Assembly: GCF_024267675.1 (NCBI RefSeq)
Contig: NZ_JALDYX010000007.1
Location: forward strand, 142,555 to 182,554
Direction: 5' to 3'
DNA: 40,000 nt
Source: Marinobacterium sedimentorum
Lineage (GTDB): Bacteria > Pseudomonadota > Gammaproteobacteria > Pseudomonadales > Balneatricaceae
Positions within the stretch are counted from its first letter, which is position 1; each line of letters starts with the position of its first letter. Below are positions 19,140 through 40,000 of this stretch, piece by piece. The position numbers were made by a program, and so were the translations under genes. The notes beneath the pieces were generated by a model. It was not told where the DNA came from, did no database searches, and saw nothing but the letters and a program-made list of their open reading frames with translations.

Positions 19140-19150
19140 GCTGTGTCTCC

Positions 19151-19459: not shown

Positions 19460-19508
19460 CTCGACCACCTTTTGTTTTATATATAAACACTCGTCTTATA
19501 TGCGAACA

Positions 19509-20025: not shown

Positions 20026-20814
20026 TTAAAATTGCGACGAATGCAGGCTCAGCGTACGCGACAGATCCTGCGCCGCCTTGACGACCTCATCCCGGATACG
20101 ACCATCAAACTCGTCACGGGACAGGCTACCCAGCGGACAACTGACGGAGACCGCGGCAACGATACGCCGGTCTTCCACACTGAAAACCGGAGCAACGCAG
20201 GCCGCCATGCCGGGATTAAAATGCCCCCAGGCGATCGCTGCATCCTTCCCGCGATAACTGCGCACCCGCTCCAGCAGTGCCTCGGGGCTGGCGGGAGTGC
20301 TTTCGGTAAAACGATCGAAGCTGAAATCCTGGTACAGCGCTACAACCGCCTCGTCCGACAGGGTCGAAAGCATCAGCTGCCCGGTAACTGTGGCGTGGGC
20401 AGGCCAGCGTGTGCCCACCGATACGGTACTGGTGAAAGGCCCGGTGGCCTGGAAGCAATCGACAATCACGGTATTGCGGCCGTCGCGAATCAGCAGCTGG
20501 CTCGCCAGGGTTGTCTGGTTGCGCAGATGCTCCAGAATCGGCCGCGACGGCTCCAGCAGCTCCAGGCTGGAGAGGTATTGAAACCCCAGATCCAGAATAC
20601 GCGAACTCAGGGTATAGCGATTACTGTCGCCGATGCGCCTTATAAATCCACAGTGTTCCAGGGTATAAACGAGCCTGAAGGTACTGGAGCGATTGACGCC
20701 AATCGCCTCCGCCAGTTCGGATATAGACACTTCCCTGTTGGTTTTGCTGAACTGCTGCAGCACAGCCAGCCCCCTGACCAGACCCGGGACTATATAACGG
20801 TCATCTGTTTCCAT
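20026..20814 (-). CDS. IclR-family transcriptional regulator
   Basis: N-terminal winged HTH (VSISELAEAIGVNRSSTFRLVYTLEHCGFI) and a C-terminal IclR effector domain. I chose METDD at 20814 because the upstream extension in the ORF track is non-homologous. Confidence 0.9.
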   Translation of the reverse strand: METDDRYIVPGLVRGLAVLQQFSKTNREVSISELAEAIGVNRSSTFRLVYTLEHCGFIRRIGDSNRYTLSSRILDLGFQYLSSLELLEPSRPILEHLRNQTTLASQLLIRDGRNTVIVDCFQATGPFTSTVSVGTRWPAHATVTGQLMLSTLSDEAVVALYQDFSFDRFTESTPASPEALLERVRSYRGKDAAIAWGHFNPGMAACVAPVFSVEDRRIVAAVSVSCPLGSLSRDEFDGRIRDEVVKAAQDLSRTLSLHSSQF

Positions 20815-20938
20815 GATCTGCCTGTACCCACTGCGAACACTGCCAAAACGACCTGCGATTGGATCACGCGCCCCTGAAGCTGTCAATTGAAGCCCACGCC
20901 CTGGAAGACTCTGCGCCAATAAGCGGCAGATCAATTTT

Positions 20939-20954
20939 TTGACCTTTTGGAAAA
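20939..20954. promoter_or_regulatory. RutR-like (TetR-family pyrimidine regulator) operator candidate, site 1
   Basis: TTGACCTTTTGGAAAA compared with the remembered E. coli RutR consensus TTGACCAnnTGGTCAA (11/14 specified positions). Confidence 0.3.
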
Positions 20955-20987
20955 ATTACCTTGCCCGGTCAGTTTTCAGGTTATATA

Positions 20988-21003
20988 TTGACCAAAAGGT
21001 AAA
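20988..21003. promoter_or_regulatory. RutR-like operator candidate, site 2
   Basis: TTGACCAAAAGGTAAA matches 12/14 specified positions. It lies 49 bp from site 1 in the iclR/NCS1 divergent region. Confidence 0.35.
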
Positions 21004-21359: not shown

Positions 21360-22862
21360 ATGAGCACCGAGTCTCCCCGTACCTCAACCGCCGTCCAGGT
21401 GGGTGAGTTCTATGAACTCAATACAGGCCCGGACGTGCGCAACAGCGCCCACTATAACGAGGATATAGCCCCCACCCGGATCAGCGAGCGTACCTGGTCG
21501 ACCTGGAACGTCGCCGCCCTCTGGGTCGGCATGGCCATTTGCGTACCCACCTATACCCTGGGCGGCGTGCTCACCGCCTATTTCGGTCTGTCGGTGAGTG
21601 AGGCCCTGATCACCATCCTGCTGGCCAACCTGGTGGTGCTGATTCCGCTGACGCTCAACGCCTATGCCGGCACCAAGTTCGGCATCCCCTTTCCGGTATT
21701 GCTGCGCTCGTCCTTCGGTATTCTGGGCTCCAACATCCCCTGCCTGATTCGCGCCCTGGTGGCCTGTGGCTGGTTCGGCATCCAGACACTGTTCGGCGGC
21801 GTGGCCATCCATATACTCTTCTCGACCCTGATTCCCGGCTGGGAGAGCCTGGGCGGTACCGGCGAGGTCATCGGCTTCTTCATGTTCCTGGTGATGAACC
21901 TCTTTATCGTCATCAAGGGATCGGAATCCATCAAGATCCTGGAGACCCTGTCCGCTCCGCTGCTGCTGGGTGTGAGTATCGGCCTGATGATGTGGGCCAT
22001 GCCCCAGGTATCCATCACCGAGCTGCTGGAGATTCCCGCCAAACGTCCGGAAGGTGCCTCTTTCTGGGGTTACTTCTTCGGTGGACTGACCGCCATGGTC
22101 GGCTTCTGGGCCACCCTGTCCCTGAATATTCCGGACTTCAGCCGTTACGTTAAATCACAGAAGGACCAGATCACCGGCCAGATTATCGGCCTGCCCCTGA
22201 CCATGCTGTTCTTCGCGTCCCTGGGCGTTGTACTCACCGCCGCCTCCGCCAGCCTGGTGGGCGAAACCATTTCGGACCCGGTCAACCTGATCGGCAAGAT
22301 CGACAGCCCCGTCTGGGTCGTGATCGCCATGATCATGATCATCATCGCCACCCTGTCCACCAACACCGCCGCCAATATCGTCTCGCCGACCAATGATTTC
22401 CAGAACATAGCCCCCAAGAAAATCAACCAGACCCGCGGCGTGCTGCTGACCGGCGCCCTGGGCATAGTACTGATGGGCTGGGAGCTGCTGAAAAAGCTCG
22501 GCATCATCGAGTCCGATGTCAGTGTCGAGGCCATGTATACCGGCTGGCTGCTGGGCTACTCCAGCCTGCTGGGGCCGATTGCCGGCATCATGATCGTCGA
22601 CTATTTCGTCATCAAGCGTCAGTTCCTGAACCTGCCTGAACTGTACAAGACCCACGGCATCTATCGCGGCTTCAATCCCGCGGGCCTGACCGCCTTTGGC
22701 ATACCGGTGGCCCTGACGCTGTTTTCCATCAGCACCGGCTACCTGAACTGGTTCTATCAGTACGGCTGGTTTACCGGCTCCATTCTCGGCGGCCTGGTGT
22801 ACTGGGTTGCCGCCAGCAAGCAGCCTGCGCCCGTCACCCAGGGCCTGGCCCAGGGTAACTGA
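21360..22862 (+). CDS. NCS1-family nucleobase:cation symporter (uracil/hydantoin/allantoin permease-like)
   Basis: 500 aa with about 12 TM helices. The N-terminal NEDIAPT..ERTWSTWN motif is typical of NCS1 (Mhp1/PucI/FUR-like). AGAGGA RBS. Confidence 0.9.
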   Translation: MSTESPRTSTAVQVGEFYELNTGPDVRNSAHYNEDIAPTRISERTWSTWNVAALWVGMAICVPTYTLGGVLTAYFGLSVSEALITILLANLVVLIPLTLNAYAGTKFGIPFPVLLRSSFGILGSNIPCLIRALVACGWFGIQTLFGGVAIHILFSTLIPGWESLGGTGEVIGFFMFLVMNLFIVIKGSESIKILETLSAPLLLGVSIGLMMWAMPQVSITELLEIPAKRPEGASFWGYFFGGLTAMVGFWATLSLNIPDFSRYVKSQKDQITGQIIGLPLTMLFFASLGVVLTAASASLVGETISDPVNLIGKIDSPVWVVIAMIMIIIATLSTNTAANIVSPTNDFQNIAPKKINQTRGVLLTGALGIVLMGWELLKKLGIIESDVSVEAMYTGWLLGYSSLLGPIAGIMIVDYFVIKRQFLNLPELYKTHGIYRGFNPAGLTAFGIPVALTLFSISTGYLNWFYQYGWFTGSILGGLVYWVAASKQPAPVTQGLAQGN

Positions 22863-22942: not shown

Positions 22943-24409
<1,467 letters not shown>

Positions 24410-26031: not shown

Positions 26032-26118
26032 GAGCCTGCAGAGCCCCGTGCGGCTCCCCCTCCCCTATACTTGAAACGACGACCTGCAGCCAGGCAGCCC
26101 GAAGCTGCGGGCGATTTC

Positions 26119-26210
26119 TTTCAAGCTAGGGGAATCAAGCTCAGTGCTCCAAGCTCAGGGCATCAAGCTCGGGGTATCAGGCACCGGCTATCAAACATCA
26201 GCTCAGGAGG
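26119..26210 (+). repeat. Degenerate tandem repeat of about 14 bp (core TCAAGCTCRGGG), 5-6 units, ending in the kynA Shine-Dalgarno
   Basis: Units: tttcaagctagggga / atcaagctcagtgct / ccaagctcagggc / atcaagctcggggt / atcaggcaccggct / atcaaacatcagctcaggagg. Confidence 0.8.
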
Positions 26211-26214
26211 CAGC

Positions 26215-27327
26215 ATGACGACAGAGGCACAGCCGTCGGATCTCTATTACGGGGACTACCTGCAGCTCGGGCAACTGCTCGGCGCCCAGGCACCGCTGAG
26301 TCGCCGGCAGGGCAGCGAAGCCCATGACGAGATGCTGTTTATCATAGTGCACCAGGCCTATGAGCTCTGGTTTAGACAGATTCTGCATGAGCTTGATGCC
26401 GTGCTGCGGGCTTTCGGGGAGGCCAGGCTCGATGAACGCCGACTGGCAGGCATCTGCGCCAAGCTGGAACGGATCAGCGTTATTCAGCACCTGCTGGTCG
26501 AGCAGATCGGCGTGATCGAAACCATGACGCCGCAGGATTTTCTGGAATTTCGCGACCTGCTGGTGCCGGCCTCCGGCTTTCAAAGCCTGCAGTTTCGCGC
26601 CATCGAGATAAAGCTCGGGCTGCGCGAGCAGGACCGTACCGCCTTCAGCGCCTGCGCCTTCTATCAGCGTTTCAAGCCCGCCGACGCCCATTACCTGCGC
26701 AGGCTGCAAACTGAGCCCAGCCTGTTCGACCGGGTCGATGCCTGGCTGGCACGCATGCCGTTCTTGCAGGACAAGCACTACGACTTCTGGTCCAGCTATC
26801 GCGACAGTATCGAAGCCAGCCTTGCATCCGACCGGCAGCTGATCGAAACGCACCCGCTGCTCTCTGCCGACGACAAACAGCTACAGCTGGCGCAGCTGAC
26901 ACAAACCCGGCAGCAGTTCGACAGTCTGTTTCTGCCCGAAGCCTACGAGTCACAACGGACACAGGGTCTGGTGCGGCTGTCACACCGCGCCATTCAGGCC
27001 GCGCTCTTTATCTACCTGTACCGTGACGAGCCACTGCTGCAGCAGCCCTTTGGCTTGCTGAAACGTCTGGTGGAAGTGGATGAACAGCTGACCGCCTGGC
27101 GTTATCGCCATGCCCTTATGGTGCAGCGGATGCTCGGCCGCCGTATCGGTACCGGCGGCTCATCGGGGCACGACTACCTGCGCACCAGCGCCGAACGAAC
27201 GCAGATATTTGGCGACTTTTTCAACCTCGCCTCTTACCTGCTGCCCCGCTCCAAACTGGCACCGCTGCCAGCGGAGCTGACCCAGCTGCTGGATTTTCAT
27301 TTCAGCACCCTGCACCGCGATGCCTGA
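26215..27327 (+). CDS. kynA: Tryptophan 2,3-dioxygenase, long (metazoan-like) form
   Basis: [70 protein letters not shown] RBS lies before the ATG at 26215. Length is 370 aa. Confidence 0.9.
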   Translation: [370 protein letters not shown]

Positions 27328-28519
27328 CTCAGGTGCTCGTTATAAAAAATACTACCGTCGCTTCCTGCAGGCCCATCCGGGTCAGCTGCATTTTACCGCC
27401 CACAGTCACCACTACTGGCCGGACGTGACGCGCGAGGCGATGCTGCAATACTGGGACCATGCCGCACTGCAGGTCGATGACAAATGGGCCTCGCTGCACA
27501 GCGACCTGATCCCCCGGCTGCAGCAGCGCATCGGCACACTGCTGGGGTCAAACAGCCCGCGGCAGCTCTGTTTCGCCCCCAGCACACACGAGCTGCTGGT
27601 GCGGCTGCTCTCCTGCCTGGCTCTGAACCGCAAGGTGCAGATTTTGACCTCGACCGCGGAATTTCACAGCTTTTCACGTCAGATTCGCCGACTGGAGGAA
27701 ACCGGCTGGTGCCAGGTCACCCGCATTGCGAGCGAACCCATAGGCGAATTCGCGCCCCGCATGCTGGCCGCGCTGCGCCAGCAACCCTGGGATCTGCTGT
27801 TTTTCAGTCAGGTCTTTTTCGACTCAGGCCTGGTGGTTACCGACCTGGCCGAGATCGCGGCGGCTGCCCCGCGCAGCTGCCTCGTTGCAATCGATGCCTA
27901 CCACGGCTTTGCCGCGCTGCCGTTTGCACCGGGACCGCTGCTGGAGCGCGTGTTTTACCTGGCCGGCGGCTACAAATATGCCCAGGGAGGCGAGGGCTGC
28001 TGTTTCATGCATGTACCGCCCGACTGCAGATTGCGCCCCGCGATCACCGGCTGGTTCGCCGATTTTGAACACCTCGACCAGCCCGGCAGCCGGGTTGACT
28101 ACGCCGCGGACGGCCGCCGCTTCGCCGGTGCCACCTTCGACCCAACCGGCCTTTACCGGCTGGATGCAGTGCTGGGACTCTATGAACGTGAAAGGATTGG
28201 CATCAGTGAACTGCACGCGCATGTCAGCGCCTTGCAGCAACGCTTCCTGGCGGGCCTGGATCAGCCGGTTGCTTGCTTTCAGGGCGGGCGCTGGGTCCAT
28301 GAGGCAGGACGGCCCCACGGCCACTTTCTGACCATTGAACTGCCCGCAGCGGGCGCCGCCGCACTGGTGCAGCAACTGAAACAGCAGGGCATCCACAGCG
28401 ACAGTCGCGGCCAGCGGCTGCGCTTCGGCTTTGGCGCCTATCACGATTACAAGGATATAGACCGGCTTCTAAACTGCCTGCGTACGCTTCCCACAGCGCC
28501 TGTCCCCAAGCCGCGGTGA
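27320..28519 (+). CDS. Kynureninase-like class-V-fold PLP-dependent enzyme (divergent)
   Basis: GGYKYAQGGEG parallels the kynureninase PLP-lysine motif (C)TYKYLNGGPG. ITGWFA and LRFGFG parallel LSGWFGH and MRFGF. It overlaps the kynA stop by 8 nt. Confidence 0.6.
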   Translation: MPDSGARYKKYYRRFLQAHPGQLHFTAHSHHYWPDVTREAMLQYWDHAALQVDDKWASLHSDLIPRLQQRIGTLLGSNSPRQLCFAPSTHELLVRLLSCLALNRKVQILTSTAEFHSFSRQIRRLEETGWCQVTRIASEPIGEFAPRMLAALRQQPWDLLFFSQVFFDSGLVVTDLAEIAAAAPRSCLVAIDAYHGFAALPFAPGPLLERVFYLAGGYKYAQGGEGCCFMHVPPDCRLRPAITGWFADFEHLDQPGSRVDYAADGRRFAGATFDPTGLYRLDAVLGLYERERIGISELHAHVSALQQRFLAGLDQPVACFQGGRWVHEAGRPHGHFLTIELPAAGAAALVQQLKQQGIHSDSRGQRLRFGFGAYHDYKDIDRLLNCLRTLPTAPVPKPR

Positions 28520-28618: not shown

Positions 28619-30013
28619 TCAGATCGACTCGTTCACCGCCGCCGTCAGTTCCATGATGGCTTTCTTGCCATCCCCAAACAGCATCAGACAGTTGTCCCGG
28701 GCAAATAAAGGATTGGGCAGGCCTGCGAAGCCCGGGCTCAGGCTGCGCTTGACCACCACCACGGTGCGCGCCTTGTCAACGTTGAGGATCGGCATGCCGT
28801 AAATCGGGCTGCCCTTGTCCTCCCGTGCCATGGGATTGGTGACGTCATTGGCACCTATCACTATGGCCACATCCGTCTGCTCGAACAGCGCATTGACCTC
28901 TTCCATGGGCTGCATCTTGTCGTAGGCCACCTCGGCTTCGGCCAGCAGTACATTCATGTGTCCCGGCATGCGCCCCGCCACCGGATGCAGGCCGTAGATC
29001 ACCTCTATGCCACGACGTTCCAGCGAGTCGGCCAGATCCCGCACCGCGTGCTGGGCCTGGGCCATGGCCAGACCAAAGCCTGGCACTATCACCACCCGGC
29101 GGGCGCTCTCTAACAGCATGCCCACTTCCTCGGGCGAGGACGACTTCACCTTGCCGGCATAGACTTCATCCGCATCCATCACAGGCCCGCCGGCCTCCCC
29201 CATGGAGCCGAACAGCACACCGGCCAGCGACCGGTTCATGGCCACGCACATGATACGGGTCAGGATAATGCCCGACGCCCCCACCAGGGCGCCGGACACC
29301 ACCAGCACGCTGTTGCCCATGATAAAGCCCGCTGCCGCTGCCGCCAGCCCCGAATAGGAGTTAAGCAGCGCTATCACCACCGGCATGTCGGCACCGCCAA
29401 TGGGCATGACCAGGGTTACCCCCAGCACCAGCGCCAGCACGCTGAGCAGTATCAGGATGCCGCTGTCGCCGCTGCCGCTGATGAGTGAGCCCGCCAGTGC
29501 CAGCACCGCCACAAAGAGCAGCAGATTAAAGCCACGGATACCCCGAAAGCCCAGCGGCCGGCCCGGCAGCAGTTCCTGCAGCTTGGCAAAGGCCACGGCA
29601 CTGCCGGTCAGGGTCACGGCGCCGATCAGCAGCGTCACGCAGATGGCCACCAGCGCCACCAGCCCCTGCAGGCCTTCTGTTTCCGCCAGGCCCAGAAAGC
29701 TCGCCGCCGCCACACAGAGGGAGGCTCCGCCACCAAAGCCGTTGAGCAGCGCCACCATCTGCGGCATCGCCGTCATCTGGATACGGGTCGCCAGCACAGT
29801 ACCGATCAGCGAGCCCAGCACCACGCCGCCCAGTATCCACTCATAGGACAGGATCGACTTGTCCAGCAGGGTGACCACCACCGCCACCAGCATGCCGATG
29901 GCGGCCATCTGGTTACCGCGCACCGCGGTGCGCGGCCGGGTCAGTCCCTTGATACCCCCGACGAACAGCATCGCCGCCAGCAGGTAGAAACCATCAACCA
30001 GGAACAGATTCAT
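28619..30013 (-). CDS. pntB: NAD(P) transhydrogenase subunit beta
   Basis: 464 aa. The N-terminal membrane domain and C-terminal NADP(H)-binding dIII (GANDVTNP, YGMPIL) are typical of PntB. Confidence 0.93.
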   Translation of the reverse strand: MNLFLVDGFYLLAAMLFVGGIKGLTRPRTAVRGNQMAAIGMLVAVVVTLLDKSILSYEWILGGVVLGSLIGTVLATRIQMTAMPQMVALLNGFGGGASLCVAAASFLGLAETEGLQGLVALVAICVTLLIGAVTLTGSAVAFAKLQELLPGRPLGFRGIRGFNLLLFVAVLALAGSLISGSGDSGILILLSVLALVLGVTLVMPIGGADMPVVIALLNSYSGLAAAAAGFIMGNSVLVVSGALVGASGIILTRIMCVAMNRSLAGVLFGSMGEAGGPVMDADEVYAGKVKSSSPEEVGMLLESARRVVIVPGFGLAMAQAQHAVRDLADSLERRGIEVIYGLHPVAGRMPGHMNVLLAEAEVAYDKMQPMEEVNALFEQTDVAIVIGANDVTNPMAREDKGSPIYGMPILNVDKARTVVVVKRSLSPGFAGLPNPLFARDNCLMLFGDGKKAIMELTAAVNESI

Positions 30014-30335
30014 GACTCACACCTCCCTTGGCGGCAGTTGGGGTAGAGACTTTGCGGGGCCTGAACATGCGCAACATGCGGTTCGTCACCAGGAATCCCC
30101 CCACGACATTGATTGTCGCCAGGGTCACGGCGATCATCCCGAGCACCGGCACCCAGAGGCCGGCACCATCGCCTGCGCCCGCTGCCAGCAACGCGCCCAC
30201 CAGGGTGATGCCGGAAATGGCATTGCTGCCGGACATCAAGGGCGTGTGCAGGGTCGCCGGCACCTTGGTGATGAGCTCGACGCCCAGAAACACCGCCAGC
30301 ACGAAGAGTGAAATTTGCAGTATCAGGATTTCCAT
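29994..30335 (-). CDS. pntAB: NAD(P) transhydrogenase subunit alpha, part 2 (membrane)
   Basis: About 110 aa with 3 TM helices. LHTPLMSGSNAISGI motif. Its start shares a TGATG junction with the pntAA stop. Confidence 0.85.
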   Translation of the reverse strand: MEILILQISLFVLAVFLGVELITKVPATLHTPLMSGSNAISGITLVGALLAAGAGDGAGLWVPVLGMIAVTLATINVVGGFLVTNRMLRMFRPRKVSTPTAAKGGVSHESVPG

Positions 30336-31498
30336 CAGGCCACCTCCTCCAGCGCCCGTACACCCAGGCCCAGGCGCTCACGAATGCGCCCGGCACAGAT
30401 CTCGCCCTGGTGAGTCACCAGGGTGTCGGCGACGATTTCATCGTCAAAATCCAGCTGCAGCCGGGCCTCGTCATCCAGCAGGTGCAGCAGCAGATTTTCG
30501 ATATTGCGGCCGTGCATCTGGCTGGCATGCAGGGGCACGCTGGCCGCCAGGTTCAGCGGCCCCATGATGGTCACGCCATGCTCCTGCCGTGTTTCACCTG
30601 CCCGTGTCAGCTCGCAGTTGCCACCGCGCTCCGCCGCCAGATCCACGATCACGGCCCCTGGCTTCATCGCCACCACCATCTCGGCGCTGATCAGCACAGG
30701 TGCGCGGCTGCCGGGAATGGCGGCCGTGGTAATGACGATATCCTGCTGCGCCAGTACGGCGGTCATCTGCTCGCGCTGGCGCGCCAGGAAATCCGCCCCC
30801 TGTTCGGCGGCATAACCGCCCTGGCCTTCGGCCGCCTCGGTGGGCAGATCCAGCTCGATGGGCCTCGCCCCCACAGAGATGATCTGCTCCCGTGCCGCCG
30901 GGCGCACATCGTAGGCTTCCACCACGGCGCCCAGGCGCTTGGCGGTGGCCGCCGCCTGCAACCCGGCAACACCGGCCCCCATAATAAAGACGCGGGCCGG
31001 ATTCAGGGTGCCGGCGGCGGTCATCATCATCGGGAAGATACGCGGCGCTGCCTCGGCCGCCATCAGCACCGCCTTGTAACCGGCGATGGTGGCGATGGAC
31101 GACAGCACATCCATGCTCTGGGCACGGCTGATGCGCGGCACCAGCTCCAGCGCCAGCAACGACAGCCCGCGCTCGGCCAGGCCTTCGAAACGCGCCGTAT
31201 CGCTCAGCGGATCCATCAGCGCAATGCACAGCTGGCCGGCACTGAGCCCCTCGAGATCCTCGTTGCGACTGGCATTGACGCACAGCAGCAGCTCGCTGCC
31301 GGTGATGGCCTCGCCCCGTGACGCCGCTATGGCGGCGCCGGCATCAACATAGAGCCCATCGGCAAAGCCTGCCAGCAGGCCTGCGCCAGACTCGACCCGA
31401 ATCTCACAGCCGCGGGCACAGAGCGCCGCAACATTGGCCGGCGTCAGCGCAACGCGCCGCTCGCCGGGGTACAGATCCCTGAGTACAGATAATTTCAT
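30335..31498 (-). CDS. pntAA: NAD(P) transhydrogenase subunit alpha, part 1 (NAD(H)-binding dI)
   Basis: Alanine-dehydrogenase-like fold with the Rossmann motif VFIMGAGVAGLQA. GGAG RBS. Confidence 0.92.
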   Translation of the reverse strand: MKLSVLRDLYPGERRVALTPANVAALCARGCEIRVESGAGLLAGFADGLYVDAGAAIAASRGEAITGSELLLCVNASRNEDLEGLSAGQLCIALMDPLSDTARFEGLAERGLSLLALELVPRISRAQSMDVLSSIATIAGYKAVLMAAEAAPRIFPMMMTAAGTLNPARVFIMGAGVAGLQAAATAKRLGAVVEAYDVRPAAREQIISVGARPIELDLPTEAAEGQGGYAAEQGADFLARQREQMTAVLAQQDIVITTAAIPGSRAPVLISAEMVVAMKPGAVIVDLAAERGGNCELTRAGETRQEHGVTIMGPLNLAASVPLHASQMHGRNIENLLLHLLDDEARLQLDFDDEIVADTLVTHQGEICAGRIRERLGLGVRALEEVA

Positions 31499-31925: not shown

Positions 31926-33158
31926 TCAGTCGTTGGCGCGTTCCAGTACCGCCTGCAGCAGCACATTGCATCCCGCCGCCAGATCTTCTGCCTTGGCGTT
32001 TTCCGCCTCGTTGTGGCTGATGCCGTTTTCGCAGGGCACGAAGACCATCGATGTCGGCGCCACACGGGAGATATAGCAGGCATCGTGGCCGGCGCCACTG
32101 ACGATATCGCGGTGACTGTAGCCGAAGGCTTCGGCCGCCTGGCGTACCGAGTTTACACAGGCGGTATCAAAGGGCACCGGTGGCGAATACCAGATCTGCT
32201 CGAACTTCATTTCGAGCCCCAGTTCGCCCGACACCCGATCCGCAATTTCGCGCAGCTCCTGGTCCATTCTGGCCAGTACCTTGGCATCCGGGTGACGGAA
32301 GTCCACCGTAAAGAACACCTGGCCCGGAATCACGTTACGCGAGTTCGGGAACACCTGCACCAGACCGACGGTGGCACAGGCGTTGGGCTGGTGATCCATG
32401 CCAATACGGTTCACCGTATCGATCAGGCGAGCAGCCCCCACCAGGGCATCGCGGCGCCGTGTCATGGGGGTTGGGCCGGCGTGGGACTCCTGCCCGGTAA
32501 GGGTGATTTCGTACCAGCGCTGCCCCTGGGCATCGGTCACCACGCCGATCTGCTTGTCTTCATCCTCCAGAATCGGGCCCTGTTCGATATGAGCCTCGAA
32601 GAAGGCCTTGAAGGGGCGGCCACCCACTTCGTCGGGGCCGGCATAGCCAATGCGCTCCAGCTCCTGGCCCATGGTCTTGCCATCCAGGTCCGCCCGGCTG
32701 AGGCCATACTCCAGATCGAAGACGCCGGCAAAGACACCCGATGCCACCATGGCCGGCGGAAAGCGCGAGCCTTCCTCGTTGGTCCAGACCGAGGCCTCGA
32801 TGGGCGCGCGGGTTTCAATACCCTGGTCATTCAGGCTGCGAATCACCTCCAGCCCCGACAGCACGCCGTAGATACCGTCGAACTTGCCACCCGTGGGCTG
32901 GGTATCCAGATGGCTGCCCATGACCACCGGCGGCAGGGAATCGTCCTGGCCTGCGCGACGGGCGAAGATATTGCCCATTTTGTCGATGCGAATGCTGCAG
33001 CCGGCGTCCTTGCACCAGCTTACAAAAAGATCACGCCCCTGCTTGTCCAGATCTGTCAGCGCCAGGCGGCAGACGCCGCCTTTTTCGGTGCCGCCGATCT
33101 CGCCCATCTGCATCAGGCTGTCCCACAGGCGCTGCTGATTAACGGTAATCTTCTGCAT
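31926..33158 (-). CDS. M20-family Zn amidohydrolase: N-carbamoyl-amino-acid / beta-ureidopropionase (allantoate amidohydrolase family)
   Basis: VVMGSHLDTQPTGGKFDGIYGVLSGLE metal-binding motif and WTNEEGSRF. Length is 410 aa, typical of the AmaB/HyuC/PydC (M20) type. Confidence 0.88.
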   Translation of the reverse strand: MQKITVNQQRLWDSLMQMGEIGGTEKGGVCRLALTDLDKQGRDLFVSWCKDAGCSIRIDKMGNIFARRAGQDDSLPPVVMGSHLDTQPTGGKFDGIYGVLSGLEVIRSLNDQGIETRAPIEASVWTNEEGSRFPPAMVASGVFAGVFDLEYGLSRADLDGKTMGQELERIGYAGPDEVGGRPFKAFFEAHIEQGPILEDEDKQIGVVTDAQGQRWYEITLTGQESHAGPTPMTRRRDALVGAARLIDTVNRIGMDHQPNACATVGLVQVFPNSRNVIPGQVFFTVDFRHPDAKVLARMDQELREIADRVSGELGLEMKFEQIWYSPPVPFDTACVNSVRQAAEAFGYSHRDIVSGAGHDACYISRVAPTSMVFVPCENGISHNEAENAKAEDLAAGCNVLLQAVLERAND

Positions 33159-33227: not shown

Positions 33228-33251
33228 AAAAAAGGGGCAGCGCACTGCCCC
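33228..33251 (-). terminator. Rho-independent terminator downstream of the LLM oxidoreductase gene
   Basis: GGGGCAG / CTGCCCC stem. On the minus strand it is followed by TTTTTT. A second hairpin (TATTAACC/GGTTAATA, 33254-33275) precedes it. Confidence 0.75.
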
Positions 33252-33299
33252 GCTATTATTAACCCGACTGGTTAATAGCGACCTTTTAAAAGCCAGTTT

Positions 33300-34310
33300 T
33301 TAACCCTTGAAATGCGGGATAATATGCTCGCCGTACTGGGCGATAATATTTTCCTCGTCACCGTTATCCAGGTAGATATTGAACTGGGTCGTGCCTGCTT
33401 CCTTCAAATGGTTCAGTTTGGCGATATGCTGTTCGGCCTCACCCAGCACGCAGAAACTTTCAACGATTTCCGGCGTGATGAAATCCAGGTAGGGGTTATC
33501 GCTCTGGCCATGCTTGGAATAGTCGTAGCCTTTGCGCTTCTCGATATAATCGGTCAGGCTCTTGGGCACCAGGCCACTGTCGGTACCGTACTTCTCGACG
33601 ATATCGGCCACATGGTTACCCACCATGGCCGGGAACCACTTGGTGGACTCAACACAGCTGGCCCTGTCGCCGAAATAGGCCGGTGCTGCGGCAATGACCT
33701 TGAAGTTGGACATGTCACGGCCGGCTTCCACGCCGGCAGCGATGGCCTGATCCGCCAGCCACTTGACCAGGGCAGGCTCACCGATCTGCAGAATCACGCC
33801 ATCACCCACCTCCCCTGCGGTTTTCAGCGCCATCGGGCCGTATGCACCTATGTGTACGGGCAGTTCGTAGCCCTCAGCCCAGGGGAACTGCACCGGTTCC
33901 GGGCATTCGCCGTACATCACTTCCTCACCACGCACCATGGCTTTCACCTTGGTGGTGAACTCGGCCACACGGGCCAGGGTGGCGGGCTTCTTGCCCATGA
34001 CACGTACCGAGCTGTCGCCGCGCCCCAGACCCACTTCAAAGCGGCCACCGCTCTGCTTGGCCAGGCTGCCAAAGAGGCTGGCTGCCAGCGACCAGTCACG
34101 GGCATTGGGGTTGGTCACGCAGGGGGCGAACTTGATGCGCGAGGTATGTTCCATGCACATGGCGATGGCCGGGTAGCATTCGCGCCACAGGATATGGGAG
34201 TCGTAGAACCAGCAGTAGTCAAAGCCGGCGTCCTCGGCCTGTTTCACCAGTTTACGGGCACGGTCGTGGCTGACAAAACCTTTAAAGCAGATACCAAATT
34301 CCATAGTCAC
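33300..34310 (-). CDS. Luciferase-like (LLM) oxidoreductase, predicted F420-dependent
   Basis: TIM-barrel LLM features (FGICF.., FDYCWFYDSH, FEVGLGRGDS). It has Mer/Fgd-like length (about 335 aa) and lies immediately downstream of npdG and the cof genes. I recall similarity to the TIGRFAMs CPS_4043 family, but this is unverified. Confidence 0.78.
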   Translation of the reverse strand: MTMEFGICFKGFVSHDRARKLVKQAEDAGFDYCWFYDSHILWRECYPAIAMCMEHTSRIKFAPCVTNPNARDWSLAASLFGSLAKQSGGRFEVGLGRGDSSVRVMGKKPATLARVAEFTTKVKAMVRGEEVMYGECPEPVQFPWAEGYELPVHIGAYGPMALKTAGEVGDGVILQIGEPALVKWLADQAIAAGVEAGRDMSNFKVIAAAPAYFGDRASCVESTKWFPAMVGNHVADIVEKYGTDSGLVPKSLTDYIEKRKGYDYSKHGQSDNPYLDFITPEIVESFCVLGEAEQHIAKLNHLKEAGTTQFNIYLDNGDEENIIAQYGEHIIPHFKG

Positions 34311-34344
34311 TCTCCTGAGTCTTTGTTTTTATTGCAGAAAAAAA

Positions 34345-35016
34345 TTAATGCGCGTCGGGTGGGCAGATGCGAATACCGGCGTGGCTAAAGGGCACTTTCT
34401 TGGAAATATTCAGGCGGATCAGAATGGGCGTGATGGCCTCGATGCAGCGGGCGCTTTCGGCCGGGCCGCAGTTGTAGGCAGCGACATCCAGCTTGCGAAT
34501 CAGCTCGATGACCTTTTCCTTGGCTGCCAGATCATTGCCACACACCAGCACATCGCAGTTGATGCTGTGGTCCAGATCATTCAGTACCGTGGCCGAAACG
34601 TTATGCAGCGCGCCCACCACCGGGATGCTGTCCCCCAGCAGCGCCTGGGCCGCTTCAGTGGCAGAACCCGCCGCCGGCATGTCCACGCGCTTGGGGTCTC
34701 CCTGGGCCAGGGGCACGGCAATGTCGATCAGCACCTTGGCCACCAGCAAATCCCTGATGGACTCAAGCGTGGCGTCATGGGCACTGTAAGGCACCGCCAG
34801 AATCACCAGCTCATCGGCCTGCGCCACCGCTGTGCGGATATCATGGCCGCTGATCCTGGCCGCGGCAGGGCTCAGCAGGGCGCCAAGTTCTGCCGCCGCA
34901 TCCGCCGCACGGGCCGCGTCACGCGAGCCAATCGCCACCTCGATACCGGCACGGGCAAAGCGCAGTGCCAGACCCCGGCCCTGGGGACCGGTACCACCCA
35001 GAATGGATATTTTCAT
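34345..35016 (-). CDS. npdG: NADPH-dependent F420 reductase (F420H2:NADP+ oxidoreductase)
   Basis: The N-terminus [33 protein letters not shown] is the hallmark NpdG/Fno Rossmann segment. Length is 223 aa. Confidence 0.85.
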
Positions 35017-35117
35017 CGAAACCCTTCCTCTTGTTCTTTTTGGTTCAAGTTGCTATCGGTTGAGCTTTTTTCGTTTCAAGCAGCAGTCGCTGCGGCCCAC
35101 CAGGCCCACAGCGGGGT

Positions 35118-36011
35118 CTATCGAAACAGGTCTTCCTGTTGCGGGCGCACCAGGTCCCGCGCCGAGCTGTTGTCCGGCGTCCAGTCAATACCGCGGAACA
35201 GAATCGCCGGGGTCTTGCCGTCCTTGCTCATCAAGAGGCCCGAGGCCGCCGCCAGCTCATCGGCCAGGGCTGGTACCGTGACCGAAAGCTCGCGGCCGAA
35301 GGCATCACGCTCGCCCACCAGATCGATCTGGCTTGGCACCTTGGCAAGGCCCACCGCCACATTCACCAGCCCCATGCGCCAGGGCCGGCCGAAGGTATCG
35401 GTAATCACCACGCCCAGGCGCACACCGCTGGCACGTTCCAGCAGCGCGCAGATTTCCCGTGCGCTGCGATCCGGATCTTCCGGCAGCAGGATCACGGTTT
35501 CCTCGGCGCCGACATTGGATTCATCCACCGCGGCATTGGCGCAGATAAAGCCCAGCCGGTGCTCGGCAATCAGGGTGCCCTCGACCTGGCCGGGTCTTTT
35601 GATGGCCCGCACCACGCGGCTGGATTCCCCCAGAATCACCTCCACCTTGCGCGGGTCCTTGTTCAGTTCCTCGCCGAGCTGGCGCGCCTTCTCGCCCGGT
35701 ACCACATCGGCCAGGCGCCTGATCCGGCCTTCGGCCTTGGACACCACCTTGTGGGCAATCACCAGGATGTCGCCGTCCTGCAGACTGAGGGCCGCCCGCT
35801 CTATGGATTCGAGCAGCAGCGCGCCCAGATCATCCCCCGGCGCTATATCCGGAATACCCGGCAGCACCTGCATGGCAATGCGGGGACTCGCCGCGGTGCG
35901 CGCCGCCCTGGCGGCACGGTTCAGGATGGAGGGGTTGAGGATGGCGGGGTCGGTCGGGGCACCGCCGAACGCCATACTCTGTACTGCGCTGTTCTGTGTT
36001 ACAGATTCCAT
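35118..36011 (-). CDS. cofE: Coenzyme F420-0:L-glutamate ligase
   Basis: PGDDLGALL, ILVIAHKVVSKAEGR, GFICANAAVDESNVG, GRPWRMGLVNVAVG, and a C-terminal DLFR. The start is uncertain: the ATG at 36011 overlaps the cofC end and gives a 46-aa N-terminal extension, and the alternative is the ATG at 35873. Confidence 0.85.
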   Translation of the reverse strand: MESVTQNSAVQSMAFGGAPTDPAILNPSILNRAARAARTAASPRIAMQVLPGIPDIAPGDDLGALLLESIERAALSLQDGDILVIAHKVVSKAEGRIRRLADVVPGEKARQLGEELNKDPRKVEVILGESSRVVRAIKRPGQVEGTLIAEHRLGFICANAAVDESNVGAEETVILLPEDPDRSAREICALLERASGVRLGVVITDTFGRPWRMGLVNVAVGLAKVPSQIDLVGERDAFGRELSVTVPALADELAAASGLLMSKDGKTPAILFRGIDWTPDNSSARDLVRPQQEDLFR

Positions 36012-36640
36012 AGGGTCACCAGTTCCCGCGGCAGATCGCCGCTGTGTGGATGCATCAGGCTGTGAAGGTCTTCCGGGGTATCCAGATCGAAACGCATGTG
36101 GTCAAAGTGCAGCAGCTCACAGGGCAGCGACCGCTTGAGCGCCGCCGCCTGGTGCGCTTCGCTGGAGCGCGGGCCAAAGCAAAAGGGCAGGATATCCGGC
36201 GGCGTGGTCAGCAGTGCATTGGTACCGGCATCGCTCGCCGGGCAGATCAGCACCGAGGGCGCCGGTCTTGGCCGGCACAGCAGGCTGCGAAACTCGTCGG
36301 CATCAAGCCGTGCTATATCCGCCGGTACCAGCAGCTGGGAATCAAAACCCTGCTTTTTGCTCCAGTGCGCCGCCAGTGCCGCCGCCCCCGACAGCCCCGC
36401 CGGGCGCAGCTCGCGCAGCACCGCAGCACCATAGCCGCGGGCCAGTTCGCCGATGGCGGCAGAAGCCGTGACCACCAGCAACGGATAATCCGGAAAGTGG
36501 GTGCCAAAAAAGCTCAGGGTGCGTTCGCACAGGCGCCGGGCCAGCTGGCTGCGGTCTGTATCGCCGAGCACCGGGCGCAGGCGCGACTTGGCACTGGCGA
36601 AATCCTTCACCGGGATTACGATCAGGGTTTTCAGGCTCAT
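35999..36640 (-). CDS. cofC: Phospho-acid guanylyltransferase of F420 biosynthesis (CofC/FbiD)
   Basis: IVIPVKDFASAKSRL N-terminal motif. About 210 aa. ATGA overlap with cofD. Its position between cofD and cofE fits the family. Confidence 0.8.
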   Translation of the reverse strand: MSLKTLIVIPVKDFASAKSRLRPVLGDTDRSQLARRLCERTLSFFGTHFPDYPLLVVTASAAIGELARGYGAAVLRELRPAGLSGAAALAAHWSKKQGFDSQLLVPADIARLDADEFRSLLCRPRPAPSVLICPASDAGTNALLTTPPDILPFCFGPRSSEAHQAAALKRSLPCELLHFDHMRFDLDTPEDLHSLMHPHSGDLPRELVTLWNL

Positions 36641-37617
36641 GCCAATACCCTGTCAGGCTGATTCAGTTGCGGCGCCAAGCCAGCCACGGCCAGCAGTTCC
36701 CGGGCCAGGCACGCCTTGTCGGCATCGCTGCTCATCAGTGTCTGGGTCACCAGCGTATTGAGCCCGCGGGCCTGCAGGGCCGCCACATCAGCGCTGTCAC
36801 TGACATCAATCACCAGGCTATCGATCAGGCCACGGTAACAGTCGGCCACGCCCAGATTGCTGCAGCTGTACCCCGCCGCCTTGAGCATGCGGTTCGCAGG
36901 CCCCTTCACCGTCTGGCCACCGATCAGTGGCGACACAGCGACCCGGGGGCACCTGGCCGCTTCAACCGCACTGCGAATACCCGGCAGCGCCAGAATCGGG
37001 CCTATGCTCACCAGTGGATTGCTGGGCGCAAGAATGAGCAGATCCGCCTCACGGATGGCCGCCAGCGCCTCTTCGGTGGGGCGCGCCTCCTCCAGCCCCT
37101 GAATTCGCAGCTCCAGCACCTCGGGGCGGCACTGTTCGCGCACAAAGTATTCCTGGAACGACAGCCAGCCACGGGCGGTTTTGACTTCGGTCTGCATGCG
37201 GTCATCACTGGGCAGCAGTATATTGGCCGTTACCCCGAGCGCACGGGCGATGGTCTGGGCAATGGCGCTCGGACGCACACCCTGGCGACGCAGCTCGGTG
37301 CGATAGATATGGGTGGCGAAGTCCTGATCCCCCAGGTACATCCAGTCATCCGCGCCCAGTCGTGCCAGGCCTTCCAGGGTACGGCTGGTTTCATTGGCCA
37401 GCCCCCAGCCCTTGCTGCGATCAATCAGCCCGGCCAGGCTGTAGGTAATGGTATCTATATCCGGCGAGACCCAGAGGCCGTGAAATTCCTGATCATCCGC
37501 CACGTTGCCGATGATCGAGAGCTGACCGGGCTGCAGTATCGCGGCAAGCCCAATGGCCAGCTTGGCGCCACCGCCACCGCCGGCCAGCAGGGTGATTTTC
37601 GGCGCCTGGGCACTCAT
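36637..37617 (-). CDS. cofD: 2-phospho-L-lactate (or analogue) transferase
   Basis: LAGGGGGAKLAIGL P-loop-like N-terminus, VSPDIDTITYSLAG, GDQDFATHIYRT. Length is 326 aa. Confidence 0.9.
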   Translation of the reverse strand: MSAQAPKITLLAGGGGGAKLAIGLAAILQPGQLSIIGNVADDQEFHGLWVSPDIDTITYSLAGLIDRSKGWGLANETSRTLEGLARLGADDWMYLGDQDFATHIYRTELRRQGVRPSAIAQTIARALGVTANILLPSDDRMQTEVKTARGWLSFQEYFVREQCRPEVLELRIQGLEEARPTEEALAAIREADLLILAPSNPLVSIGPILALPGIRSAVEAARCPRVAVSPLIGGQTVKGPANRMLKAAGYSCSNLGVADCYRGLIDSLVIDVSDSADVAALQARGLNTLVTQTLMSSDADKACLARELLAVAGLAPQLNQPDRVLA

Positions 37618-38855
37618 GCAATGCCTCCGGCCAGCAGCGACTGGGGCAGCGGTTCGAACGCAGCGTCAGACGCCGCTGTGCGGTCAAAAACCTCCAGCGG
37701 GCGATAAAGCGTATTGCGGCGCACCGGCTCACGCCCCATGGCGCGCATCATGCCAATCAGCTCCGCGGGCTGCATTTCCTGGCCATGCTCGCCACCGGCG
37801 GCCCGGGAGATGCTTTCGTTCATCAGGGTGCCACCCAGATCATTGACCCCGGCGGCCAGCATCTGCTGCGCAAGGTCAGTGCCGAGCTTGACCCAGGAGG
37901 CCTGGATATTGTCGATCCAGCCATTGAGCATCAGGCGCGCCACCGCATGCATGCGGATATGCTCGTGCCGCGTGGGGCCGGGGCGCACGCCCGCCACTTC
38001 CAGATAAAGCGGCGTCTTGTAATGGATAAAGCCCAGCGGCACGAACTCGGTAAAGCCGCCGGTTTTCTGCTGAATGGTGCGCAGCAGCGCCAGGTGCGCC
38101 GCCCAGTGCTCGGGCCCATCGATATGGCCGTACATGATGGTGGCGGTGGTCGGCAGGCCCAGGCGGTGGGCGGTCTGGATAATCTCGACCCACTGGTCGG
38201 TGGTGAGTTTGTCTTTCGTCAGTTGCTGGCGTATCTCGGTATCCAGAATCTCGGCGGCGGTGCCCGGCATCGAGCCCAGACCGTGATCCATCAGATCCTG
38301 AATGAAATCGGCGTAGGACATCTTGCTCTTGCGGGCGCCAAACCAGATTTCAAACGGCGAAAAGGCGTGTATGTGCATGCCCGGCAGCACACTCTTGATG
38401 GCCTTGAGCATGTCGCGATAGAAATGCACCGGCAGGTCCGGGTGCAGCCCACCCTGAATGCACACCTCGGTGGCGCCCCTGTCCCAGGCTTCCTGGGCAC
38501 GGCGCACGATTTCATCCAGATCGAAGAACTCGGCCTCGGGGTCATCCTTGCGCTTGGCAAAGTTGCAGAACTTGCAGCCCATGTAGCAGACATTGGTGTA
38601 ATTGATATTGCGGGTGATCACGAAGGTAGCGCGATCGCCAACGCGCTGCTGGCGCACGGCATCGGCGGTGGCGGTGAGCGCATCCAGCTCGGCGCCTTCG
38701 GTGCCAAAAAGCACCACGCCTTCGGCTTCGCTCAGCTCCTCACCATCCAGGGCCCGCTGCAGAATGGCACGAACCGCCGTGCTCACAGCCGGGTTGAAAA
38801 GCTCCTGCGGCACCCTCGGTGCCAGCGCAATCTTGTGGGGGACAGCGGCATTCAT
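37614..38855 (-). CDS. cofH: FO synthase subunit 2 (radical SAM)
   Basis: TFVITRNINYTNVCYMGCKFCNFA radical-SAM cluster motif, identical in style to the FbiC C-terminal half. The ATG at 38855 has a GGAG RBS. The alternative ATG at 38879 lies inside the cofG end. Confidence 0.9.
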   Translation of the reverse strand: MNAAVPHKIALAPRVPQELFNPAVSTAVRAILQRALDGEELSEAEGVVLFGTEGAELDALTATADAVRQQRVGDRATFVITRNINYTNVCYMGCKFCNFAKRKDDPEAEFFDLDEIVRRAQEAWDRGATEVCIQGGLHPDLPVHFYRDMLKAIKSVLPGMHIHAFSPFEIWFGARKSKMSYADFIQDLMDHGLGSMPGTAAEILDTEIRQQLTKDKLTTDQWVEIIQTAHRLGLPTTATIMYGHIDGPEHWAAHLALLRTIQQKTGGFTEFVPLGFIHYKTPLYLEVAGVRPGPTRHEHIRMHAVARLMLNGWIDNIQASWVKLGTDLAQQMLAAGVNDLGGTLMNESISRAAGGEHGQEMQPAELIGMMRAMGREPVRRNTLYRPLEVFDRTAASDAAFEPLPQSLLAGGIA

Positions 38856-38869
38856 GGCTTTTCTCCTGT

Positions 38870-40000
38870 TCAGTGACATTGCGCCAGCGCCAGACCGTCG
38901 CCACGGGCGATACCGGCCAGGCGGGCGGCGATGGGGGCGGCGAAGAAGCGATGCGGGTATTGCTGATAGTGCGGGTACACCGCCAGACGCTCCTGCAGGC
39001 CGTAACCGCAGTCGGCGGTGGCGCTGCGCAGGGATTCAATCTGCGGCCAGGCGCGTTCCGGATTGATGTGATCCAGGGTGAGCGGTGAAATGCCGCCCCA
39101 GTCATTGATGCCCGCGGCTATATAGGCGCCGAAGCGCTGCTGCAGATTGGGCGGCGCCTGCACGCTGATGCTCGGGTCCAGCAGCAGCCGGGTCAGCACC
39201 AGGGTGCGCACCATGTCGTCCAGATCCGGTTCCGGATGGTTCGCCATGGCGGTACCGGGCTTGGCGCGGAAGTTCTGTACTATGACTTCCTGAATATGGC
39301 CGTAGCGGCGGTGCAGATTATTGATGGTGATAAGGCTGTCGACCCGCTCGGCCCAGTTCTCGCCGATACCGATCAGAATGCCGGTGGTGAAGGGCACGCC
39401 CTGCTCGCCGGCCCGCTCCAGAGTACGGATACGCTGAACCGGCACCTTGTCGGGGCAGGCATAGTGGGCCTGACCGCGCTGAATCAGCCGCCGGCTGACG
39501 TTTTCCAACATCATGCCCATGCTGGCGCTGACCGGCTTGAGCTTGTGGATATCTTCGTCCGACAGGGTGCCGGCATTCACATGGGGCAGCAGGCTGGATT
39601 CGGCCAGCACGCGCTCACACATCTGCGCCAGGTAATCCACCATGCTGCTGTGCCCCAGCTGCGCCAGCGCTTCCCGAGCCTGTGGATAACGCAACTCCGG
39701 CTTCTCGCCAAGACTGAACAGCACTTCCTTGCACCCCAGCCGCTCGCCTTCGTGCACCACGGCCATGACTTCATCGGGCGTCATCACGCGGGCATTGGGG
39801 GAGCCGGGTTTCTGTACAAAGGTGCAGTAGCCGCAGTCGTCGCGGCACATGTTTGTAAGCGGTACGAAGACCTTGCGCGAGTAAGTCAGAGTCTTGCCCC
39901 AGTGCGTATCACGCACGGCGGCTGCCTGCAGACCTAAGGTCTTGAATTCTGCGTCGCTCGCCTGTTCCAGCGCCAGCGCCTGGGTGCGGGTCAGCATCAT
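38870..40000 (-). CDS. cofG: FO synthase subunit 1 (radical SAM); the start is at or just beyond the window edge
   Basis: TYSRKVFVPLTNMCRDDCGYCTF motif matches the CofG / FbiC N-terminal half. The ORF reaches the last base of the window (ATGATG at 39995-40000). Confidence 0.9.
   Translation of the reverse strand: MMLTRTQALALEQASDAEFKTLGLQAAAVRDTHWGKTLTYSRKVFVPLTNMCRDDCGYCTFVQKPGSPNARVMTPDEVMAVVHEGERLGCKEVLFSLGEKPELRYPQAREALAQLGHSSMVDYLAQMCERVLAESSLLPHVNAGTLSDEDIHKLKPVSASMGMMLENVSRRLIQRGQAHYACPDKVPVQRIRTLERAGEQGVPFTTGILIGIGENWAERVDSLITINNLHRRYGHIQEVIVQNFRAKPGTAMANHPEPDLDDMVRTLVLTRLLLDPSISVQAPPNLQQRFGAYIAAGINDWGGISPLTLDHINPERAWPQIESLRSATADCGYGLQERLAVYPHYQQYPHRFFAAPIAARLAGIARGDGLALAQCH

Follow-up and report, generated by a model that had tools for sequence, protein, structure and literature searches.

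The window analysed here is a 40,000-nucleotide stretch of the Marinobacterium sedimentorum genome (contig NZ_JALDYX010000007.1, positions 142,555 to 182,554). Its right-hand end, from 33300 to 40000 on the minus strand, holds seven consecutive open reading frames: cofG, cofH, cofD, cofC, cofE, npdG and a gene for a luciferase-like oxidoreductase (LLM). It is virtually certain that these genes form an operon for the biosynthesis of coenzyme F420, joined to an NADPH:F420 oxidoreductase and LLM. With a probability of roughly 70%, we propose that LLM takes the place of PydA, the dihydropyrimidine dehydrogenase, as an F420H2-dependent uracil/thymine reductase, and that the operon supplies the cofactor and the reductase for an F420-dependent variant of reductive pyrimidine catabolism (Pyd).

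The gene identities come from a scan with NCBIfam profiles, in which each score was compared with the curated cut-off, and Pfam served as a second library. All seven operon proteins score above their NCBIfam cut-offs, and the Pfam assignments are concordant (Table 1). An initial annotation, made from the letters of the sequence, had named the same seven minus-strand genes, had recognised a split FO synthase by its two cysteine motifs, and had assigned LLM to the CPS_4043 type. All seven frames are present, both motifs are found in the translations with each half of the synthase above its equivalog cut-off, and LLM falls in the family so named, TIGR03842. The host had been taken for a gammaproteobacterium, which agrees with the identities of LLM to its homologues in Marinobacterium profundum (99%), M. 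aestuarii (98%) and M. aestuariivivens (92%).

Relatives of LLM were collected from one genome per species. They occur in 336 species genomes, and the best 80 all belong to marine Gammaproteobacteria with the same operon. At 77–89% identity, LLM is found in Halomonas and its relatives, Halopseudomonas, Marinobacter, Marinomonas, Colwellia, Vibrio, Oceanospirillum, Amphritea and others. The initial annotation was right to place F420 genes in the Gammaproteobacteria, but its description of them as sporadic is too weak; among the marine members the module is widespread.

The surroundings of the module were compared in these best 80 of the 336 loci by mapping the proteins of the window onto them and by clustering the open reading frames in 10-kb flanks, many of the loci being cut by the end of the flank. 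The seven-gene module almost always lies within a Pyd cluster. A RutR-like TetR gene is near it in 70 of the 80 loci and an M20-family amidase in 67; the NCS1 nucleobase:cation symporter is found in 49, kept next to dihydropyrimidinase (DHPase) or the M20 gene, DHPase itself in 24, and the transhydrogenase genes pnt in 18–19, where they come after the M20 gene with a gap of only 33 nt in Halomonas. Subsets of the loci add codB/codA, the omega-aminotransferase AptA, a CoA-acylating (methyl)malonate-semialdehyde dehydrogenase (MMSDH), a nitrilase-type carbamoylase and ribA. Jointly, the loci hold every step of reductive pyrimidine degradation, from cytosine or uracil to acetyl-CoA, save the first. 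The M20 amidase adjoins LLM in most loci and has homologues, 54–75% identical, in Pyd clusters of the PreT-PreA (PreTA) type; it scores above the subfamily cut-offs for hydantoinase/carbamoylase-family amidases, a sequence match that gives the family and not the substrate. The NCS1 and pnt genes, which had been read as signs of a gammaproteobacterial genome, are more than taxonomic hints: with DHPase and the M20 amidase they make up the functional context of the operon, from which a specific substrate can be predicted for LLM.

Could the linkage be incidental, an F420 island having been inserted near Pyd genes while it acts elsewhere, for instance in stress, in the reduction of xenobiotics or as a source of FO for a photolyase? 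In the published view the role of F420 in Proteobacteria is unknown (PMC8498797), and in the window the operon has a terminator of its own and unrelated genes stand between it and DHPase. Against this, the association persists through many rearrangements in about 20 genera, recurs in Actinomycetota with a different gene order and different PydC isoforms, and is joined by RutR-type operators on the cofG promoter. In addition, the presence of CofC, CofD, CofE and NpdG indicates that the product is F420 and not FO alone, and no anomaly in GC content points to a recent insertion. We regard an incidental linkage as very unlikely.

The step that is missing from the loci is that of PydA/PreTA. With E. 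coli PreT and PreA as tblastn queries (E<=1e-3), no match was found in the window and the 80 loci, which total 1.54 Mb; since this is the defining enzyme of the pathway, the cluster was filed as a Pyd variant and not as a canonical member. A control set consisted of 80 metagenome loci anchored on DHPase, the enzyme being 67–82% identical to that of the window. PreTA is present in 53 of these and LLM in one (L161), while none has both. In the 53 loci preT-preA usually lie immediately beside DHPase, and the accessory genes are shared: NCS1, an M20 or nitrilase-type amidase, the RutR-like gene, AptA and MMSDH. When the count is confined to loci that extend 4 kb or more to either side of DHPase, PreTA alone is present in 28, LLM alone in 10, neither in 4 and both in none (Fisher p = 7e-7, a value that describes the pattern and is no true probability, the loci being related to one another). 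In L025, L036, L047 and L161, LLM stands directly after DHPase, which is the slot of preT-preA in canonical clusters; three Halieaceae/Pseudomonadales genomes with LLM in this position have no cof genes nearby. That LLM and PreTA never share a cluster is the mark of replacement, not addition, and the pattern is that of an in-situ non-orthologous displacement of PydA by LLM.

The metagenome contig L091 (WPCG01178273.1), with neither enzyme within 10 kb, has the closest DHPase (82%), together with a RutR-like gene (67%), AptA (94%) and MMSDH; as in the window, its reductase module may lie just beyond the flank.

The exclusion of PreTA also bears on the suggestion that LLM acts at another Pyd step, as a PydE-like malonic-semialdehyde reductase/3-hydroxypropionate dehydrogenase, with PydA encoded elsewhere in the genome. 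Characterised F420-dependent LLMs do include alcohol and sugar dehydrogenases (Adf, FGD, FGD2), and the absence of PydA was examined locally. However, many clusters already contain a CoA-acylating MMSDH, beside which a semialdehyde reductase would be redundant; moreover, LLM and PreTA never co-occur in a cluster and LLM can occupy the preT-preA slot directly after DHPase. A role at another step is thus quite unlikely.

As a uracil/thymine reductase, LLM would catalyse the same reaction as the NAD(P)H-dependent PydA/PreT-PreA, which turns uracil or thymine into the 5,6-dihydropyrimidine, from the same place beside DHPase and in the same RutR/PydR-type regulatory setting. Like the ferredoxin-dependent PydA variant (PydAc) of Clostridia (PMC7332683), it would carry out the first Pyd step with another electron donor. 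The enzymes themselves differ: no homology is detected by tblastn, and LLM is predicted to be a TIM barrel without Fe-S clusters or flavins. PydA/PreTA is an Fe-S flavoenzyme, and PydA carries four [4Fe-4S] clusters in addition to FAD and FMN. LLM would instead depend on a diffusible deazaflavin hydride carrier, with six extra genes to make and recharge it.

The RutR box of E. coli is TTGACCAnnTGGTCAA. One or two palindromes of this type are found 5' of cofG in nearly every locus, about 50–140 bp before the start and often paired, 33–34 bp apart; two loci (L022 and L076) have a perfect match. The derived motif TTKACC-N4-GGTMAA is 44-fold denser between -400 and +60 of cofG than elsewhere in the loci; the Marinomonas boxes are close variants that fall outside this strict count, and in M. 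profundum the boxes lie some 250–285 bp upstream of the start of the cofG frame. The same box precedes preT, the M20 gene or the gene for a nitrilase-type hydrolase in three canonical clusters with an adjacent RutR-like gene. The best family of the TetR proteins is RutR (TIGR03613), at 175–200 bits and hence below the equivalog cut-off of 368, and in the closest genome such a RutR/PydR-like gene lies just past the position that matches the end of the window. In Pseudomonas putida the RutR-like PydR represses pydA, the dihydropyrimidine dehydrogenase gene, according to work cited in PMC7332683. The cofactor operon appears to belong to a pyrimidine-responsive regulon, and the RutR-type operators seen in the related loci set it apart from known F420 biosynthesis systems. 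F420 and the cof genes are not mentioned in the text and one supplement of the RutR regulon paper (PMC5343134), although its full regulon table, Table S3, may list them.

Outside the Gammaproteobacteria, relatives of LLM at 33–43% identity come from Acidimicrobiia and two lineages of unassigned taxonomy, where they are found amid genes for cyclic amidohydrolases, carbamoylases and aminotransferases. In the Acidimicrobiia (Aquihabitans and Ilumatobacteraceae, 43% identity) the operon reads CN-hydrolase, DHPase (538 bits against 393), MMSDH (700 against 448) and LLM, with an omega-aminotransferase nearby, and no PydA-type gene was called within these 21-kb loci. A PNPOx-like gene lies just 5' of this operon (L083–L085, 5217–5684), its best family being the F420-dependent TIGR03618, with a score of 57 bits where the cut-off is 79. 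A relative at 38% identity is translationally coupled to a CN-hydrolase gene, overlapping its start. At 33% identity (L172) LLM stands between the genes for a deaminase and a CN-hydrolase, with those for a DHPase-like protein and an aminotransferase farther along. The whole L172 operon (6611–16022) comprises an NMT1-type ABC transporter, a TRZ/ATZ-like deaminase, LLM, the CN-hydrolase, an FAA hydrolase, a second, Mer-like LLM, two CoA-transferase subunits, the dihydropyrimidinase-like amidohydrolase and the aminotransferase, and may encode an F420-dependent pathway for another N-heterocycle. Two other distant LLMs (P0124 and P0135) are on contigs of less than 2.2 kb, with no usable context.

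The L172 locus raises the question of whether the clusters serve some other cyclic amide, such as 5-substituted hydantoins, dihydroorotate-like compounds or modified or halogenated pyrimidines, which LLM would reduce or oxidise. Its deaminase, FAA hydrolase and CoA transferases do suggest another substrate for that distant LLM. Hydantoin utilisation, too, has DHPase (as D-hydantoinase), M20 carbamoylase and NCS1 for its classic trio, and the NCBIfam models that match them are named for hydantoinase, allantoin and carbamoyl amino acids. The RutR-like regulators and RutR-type boxes, the cytosine permease and deaminase, the beta-alanine-type aminotransferase and the (methyl)malonate-semialdehyde dehydrogenase nevertheless point specifically to a route from cytosine, uracil or thymine to beta-alanine or beta-aminoisobutyrate. 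Moreover, DHPase orthologues of 67–82% identity stand in canonical PreTA clusters. Another cyclic amide as the substrate therefore seems unlikely.

In an all-against-all profile search TIGR03842 proves to be narrow: 161 representatives reach E<=1e-30. The AlphaFold (AF2) model of LLM has the TIM-barrel fold of the LLM class (pLDDT 86, pTM 0.86), with low confidence in the lid formed by residues 230–275. Its 14 best fold matches in the PDB are all F420-dependent LLMs, the first being Mer with bound F420; the Mer structures align with a TM score of 0.80 and 26–28% identity, and a sequence search (phmmer E = 2e-28) ranks the matches in the same way. No solved structure from within TIGR03842 is among these structure matches. 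Mer (PDB 1z69, 8qpl and 1f07) is the closest solved relative and shares with LLM the fold and the VTNP..R and G.GD motifs; in contrast to Mer, LLM has no tetrahydromethanopterin (H4MPT) pathway nearby, and its proposed substrate is a pyrimidine C=C and not a methylene-pterin. LLM is accordingly best described as a predicted F420-class, Mer-like TIM barrel. From the family model, the fold and the F420 synthesis genes in the same operon, we infer that it binds and uses F420. The residues D35, R69/D70, R95, D97, N230/H231, R257 and D261/Y262 are invariant throughout the family and are candidates for substrate binding. An assignment of LLM as Mer itself was rejected, the scores being 129 and 127 bits against Mer cut-offs of 276 and 349.

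Table 1. Features of the operon and of its surroundings in the window (scores in bits, followed by the curated cut-off where two values are given)
Feature	Position	Strand	Evidence
cofG, FO synthase subunit, radical SAM; start codon at window edge	38870..40000	-	TIGR03550 470 vs 213; PF04055; CRDDCGYCTF motif
cofH, FO synthase subunit, radical SAM	37614..38879	-	TIGR03551 514 vs 374; PF04055; CYMGCKFCNF motif; start overlaps cofG stop by 10 nt
cofD, 2-phospho-L-lactate transferase	36637..37617	-	TIGR01819 293 vs 257; ATGA overlap with cofH
cofC, guanylyltransferase, 2-phospholactate/phosphoenolpyruvate (2-PL/PEP) type	35999..36640	-	TIGR03552 134 vs 105; FGPRSS aligns to M. tuberculosis FbiD FGPDSS
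cofE, F420-0:gamma-glutamyl ligase, single domain	35118..36011	-	TIGR01916 256 vs 181
npdG (Fno), NADPH:F420 oxidoreductase	34345..35016	-	TIGR01915 200 vs 150
LLM-class F420-dependent oxidoreductase, proposed F420H2:uracil/thymine reductase	33300..34304	-	TIGR03842 'F420_CPS_4043' 498 vs 295
Terminator-like hairpin 3' of LLM, end of operon	33234..33251	-	GGGGCAGTGCGCTGCCCC then TTTTTT; consensus scan only
M20 N-carbamoyl-amidohydrolase, PydC-like beta-ureidopropionase candidate	31926..33158	-	NF006769 695; TIGR01879 440
pntAA-pntAB-pntB, proton-translocating transhydrogenase, proposed NADPH supply	28619..31498	-	best NF006942, NF006974; all below equivalog cut-offs
Dihydropyrimidinase (PydB)	22964..24409	+	TIGR02033 614 vs 393
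NCS1 nucleobase:cation symporter	21360..22862	+	TIGR00800 324, just under cut-off 353
Two RutR/PydR-type operator-like boxes 5' of NCS1-DHPase	20939..21003	.	TTGACCTTTTGGAAAA at 20939, TTGACCAAAAGGTAAA at 20988

The overlapping junctions listed in the initial annotation can be read directly from the sequence: ATGA at 37614–37617 (cofH/cofD) and at 36637–36640 (cofD/cofC), and a cofC/cofE overlap, ATGGAATCTGTAA. The overlap of cofG and cofH is ATGTCACTGA. The start of cofE is assigned to the overlapping ATG, which is kept in two other Marinobacterium species; this start is supported because the alternative, an in-frame internal Met, is CTG in M. aestuariivivens. A later start at Met47 was dropped, this residue not being conserved. 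The start codon of LLM is most likely the ATG at 34304 and not the GTG at 34310, since the spacing of AGGAGA fits the ATG and the homologues begin with MEFGI. The start of cofG lies on the last bases of the window, so that its promoter and operator are outside it. A 17-nt palindrome, TTAACCAGTCGGGTTAA (33259–33275), one base longer than the 16-nt RutR-type box, stands 5' of the M20 gene, between the stop codon of LLM and the hairpin. The GC content across the operon is 0.56–0.65, the same as elsewhere in the window, and the module roughly tracks taxonomy. No sign of a recent island was thus seen, and recent horizontal acquisition is not favoured.

CofG and CofH are predicted to produce the deazaflavin FO, which CofC, CofD and CofE would convert to F420. 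These five core enzyme families are common to the F420 systems of Archaea and Actinobacteria and to that of Mycetohabitans, and NpdG (Fno) is the sole reducing enzyme, likewise in the Betaproteobacteria as described in a 2021 review (PMC8498797). The same review states a fused FbiC for Actinobacteria and Proteobacteria, whereas CofG and CofH are split here; a fused FbiC was rejected, there being two frames that score 501 and 539 against 1018 with NF006687, each about half of the cut-off. For CofC, a Ser at the position of S162 in Mrhiz-CofC is diagnostic for the use of 3-phosphoglycerate (3PG; PMC8764529). When FGPRSS of the present CofC is aligned with FSGPSF of the Mycetohabitans enzyme (7p97) and FGPDSS of FbiD (6bwg), this position is occupied by Gly. 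The 3PG-F420 type of Mycetohabitans was thus rejected, and because of the Gly the product of the operon should be classical, 2-PL/PEP-derived F420.

CofE, with 297 residues, matches PF01996 only and aligns to NF009810 over profile positions 6–243 of 449. In contrast to FbiB systems, it has no C-terminal nitroreductase-like FMN domain, and a bifunctional ligase/dehydro-F420 reductase of the FbiB type was rejected. Clustering of all frames of the 80 loci revealed no eighth conserved module gene, such as one for a dehydro-F420 reductase or a lactate kinase. With a CofC of the 2-PL/PEP type and a CofE without the reductase domain of FbiB, the pathway would still need a supply of 2-phospholactate or an enzyme to reduce PEP-derived dehydro-F420. 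The initial annotation had called the biosynthesis complete, which holds for the core enzymes but not for this step, neither activity being among the module genes.

Two variations of the module were seen among the related loci. In some Neptunomonas, Amphritea, Oleiphilus and related genomes, ribA (GTP cyclohydrolase II) lies directly 3' of LLM (L024, 7116–7733; L026, 11154–11804; L050, 11116–11751; L077, 11124–11732), and it may provide more of the 5-amino-6-ribitylaminouracil precursor for FO. In L026, L040, L043, L050, L059 and L077 the operon begins with cofH and has no adjoining cofG; in one of these, Vibrio sp. S9_S30 (L043), cofG is found about 10 kb away, beyond the Pyd genes.

In the proposed mechanism, a pyrimidine would lift the repression of both the cofactor operon and the Pyd genes by the RutR/PydR-like regulator, and NCS1 would bring the base into the cell. 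CofGHDCE would make F420, NpdG would charge it from NADPH, and PntAB would regenerate the NADPH. LLM would then pass a hydride to C6 of uracil or thymine and so saturate the C5=C6 bond, giving the 5,6-dihydropyrimidine, whose ring DHPase would open; the M20 or nitrilase-type carbamoylase would release beta-alanine (or beta-aminoisobutyrate), CO2 and NH3. With somewhat less assurance than for the reaction itself, we also favour a broader picture in which F420 is private to the pathway, made on demand under uracil-sensing RutR/PydR control for essentially one enzyme, a metal-free LLM uracil/thymine reductase that displaces dihydropyrimidine dehydrogenase. This picture would cover the marine Gammaproteobacteria and, as an independent case, Acidimicrobiia of fresh water and soil. 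The advantage may be that the Fe-S clusters and flavins of PydA are avoided in iron-poor, oxic seawater, the replacement being iron-sparing or oxygen-robust; this is speculation.

Several points weigh against LLM as a uracil/thymine reductase. The substrate is deduced from guilt by association and by elimination, and the solved F420-dependent LLMs (Mer, Adf, FGD) act on C=N+ or C-OH/C=O and not on an enone C=C. The absence of PydA is a local one, covering about 20–40 kb per genome. The RutR-like proteins fall short of the RutR equivalog cut-off, and RutR control of the window copy, whose cofG promoter is outside the window, would be by analogy with M. profundum. In the window, 9 kb separate the operon from DHPase, with pnt and apparently unrelated tryptophan-2,3-dioxygenase-like and aminotransferase-like genes between them, and, as discussed above, no gene of the module supplies 2-PL or reduces dehydro-F420 so that saturated F420 could be reached. 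Finally, three distant proteins that score barely above the TIGR03842 model (P0121, P0128 and P0137) are found in contexts that are not Pyd-like, and the proposal is therefore limited to the core of the family.

Other features of the window lie further from the operon. A gene of the tryptophan-2,3-dioxygenase family (PF03301, 333 bits) and, after it, a gene like those for class-V aminotransferases/kynureninases are wedged between DHPase and pntB, at 26071–28519 on the plus strand; M. aestuariivivens (L002) has the same two genes, which show no evident link to the Pyd/F420 module. The gene of an IclR regulator (20026–20934) abuts the RutR-type boxes in front of NCS1. A long minus-strand run (7265–19495) encodes a thiamine pyrophosphate enzyme, an aldehyde dehydrogenase, an aspartate dehydrogenase, two short-chain dehydrogenases, an alpha/beta hydrolase, a cupin, an MFS transporter, a ferredoxin reductase, an extradiol dioxygenase-like protein, a Rieske-type oxygenase-like protein and a Rieske ferredoxin, and looks like an aromatic or other catabolic island. 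The REP-like element named in the initial annotation is an inverted pair of TGTAGGAGC (7165–7173, plus strand, and 7229–7237, minus strand), two matches where 0.14 would be expected by chance.

Two published systems resemble the one proposed here. For the mureidomycins, genetic evidence attributes the reduction of uracil at C5=C6 to a putative F420/FMN oxidoreductase (PMC10714638). This enzyme (NpsU/SSGG-03002, napsamycin/mureidomycin) is likened to LLM on its chemistry and not on sequence; it belongs to Streptomyces secondary metabolism, its substrate is a uridyl-peptide, and activity in vitro was not obtained (PMC10714638). In the uric-acid clusters of Chloroflexota, a luciferase-family F420-dependent enzyme, 'yanthine reductase', has been proposed as the ring reductase from neighbourhood analysis only (PMC12507026). 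The logic is the same, in that an F420-dependent LLM would stand in for a ring reductase driven by NADH or ferredoxin where an N-heterocycle is broken down reductively, but the pathway is that of a purine (xanthine) and the phylum another one; the likeness is one of logic and not of membership in TIGR03842. A search of the literature outside subscription journals and RegPrecise found no paper that ties F420 to pyrimidine catabolism and none that names a substrate for TIGR03842.

According to the 2021 review, why Proteobacteria make F420 is an open question, and no F420-dependent enzyme has been studied in bacteria outside the Actinobacteria (PMC8498797). The present locus narrows the question for Proteobacteria to one enzyme and one substrate. 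If the proposal is true, it would give F420 its first defined physiological role and its first F420H2-dependent reductase in this group, and the orphan family TIGR03842 would gain a substrate. LLM would also be the third electron-donor variant of the first Pyd step, after those using NAD(P)H and ferredoxin, and would have an unrelated fold. The operon is predicted to be induced during growth on uracil or thymine, and cultures in a constitutive medium would make little F420; speculatively, such low levels without induction may partly explain why mere traces are seen in some Proteobacteria. As a self-contained seven-gene cassette from an aerobic gammaproteobacterium that would make, charge and use F420, the operon is attractive for F420 biocatalysis and possibly for the biotransformation of fluoropyrimidines. 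Since the module is common in abundant marine heterotrophs (Alteromonas, Marinomonas, Halomonas, Colwellia, Vibrio) and also in Acidimicrobiia, the proposed reaction would bear on the turnover of nucleobases and of dissolved organic nitrogen in the sea.

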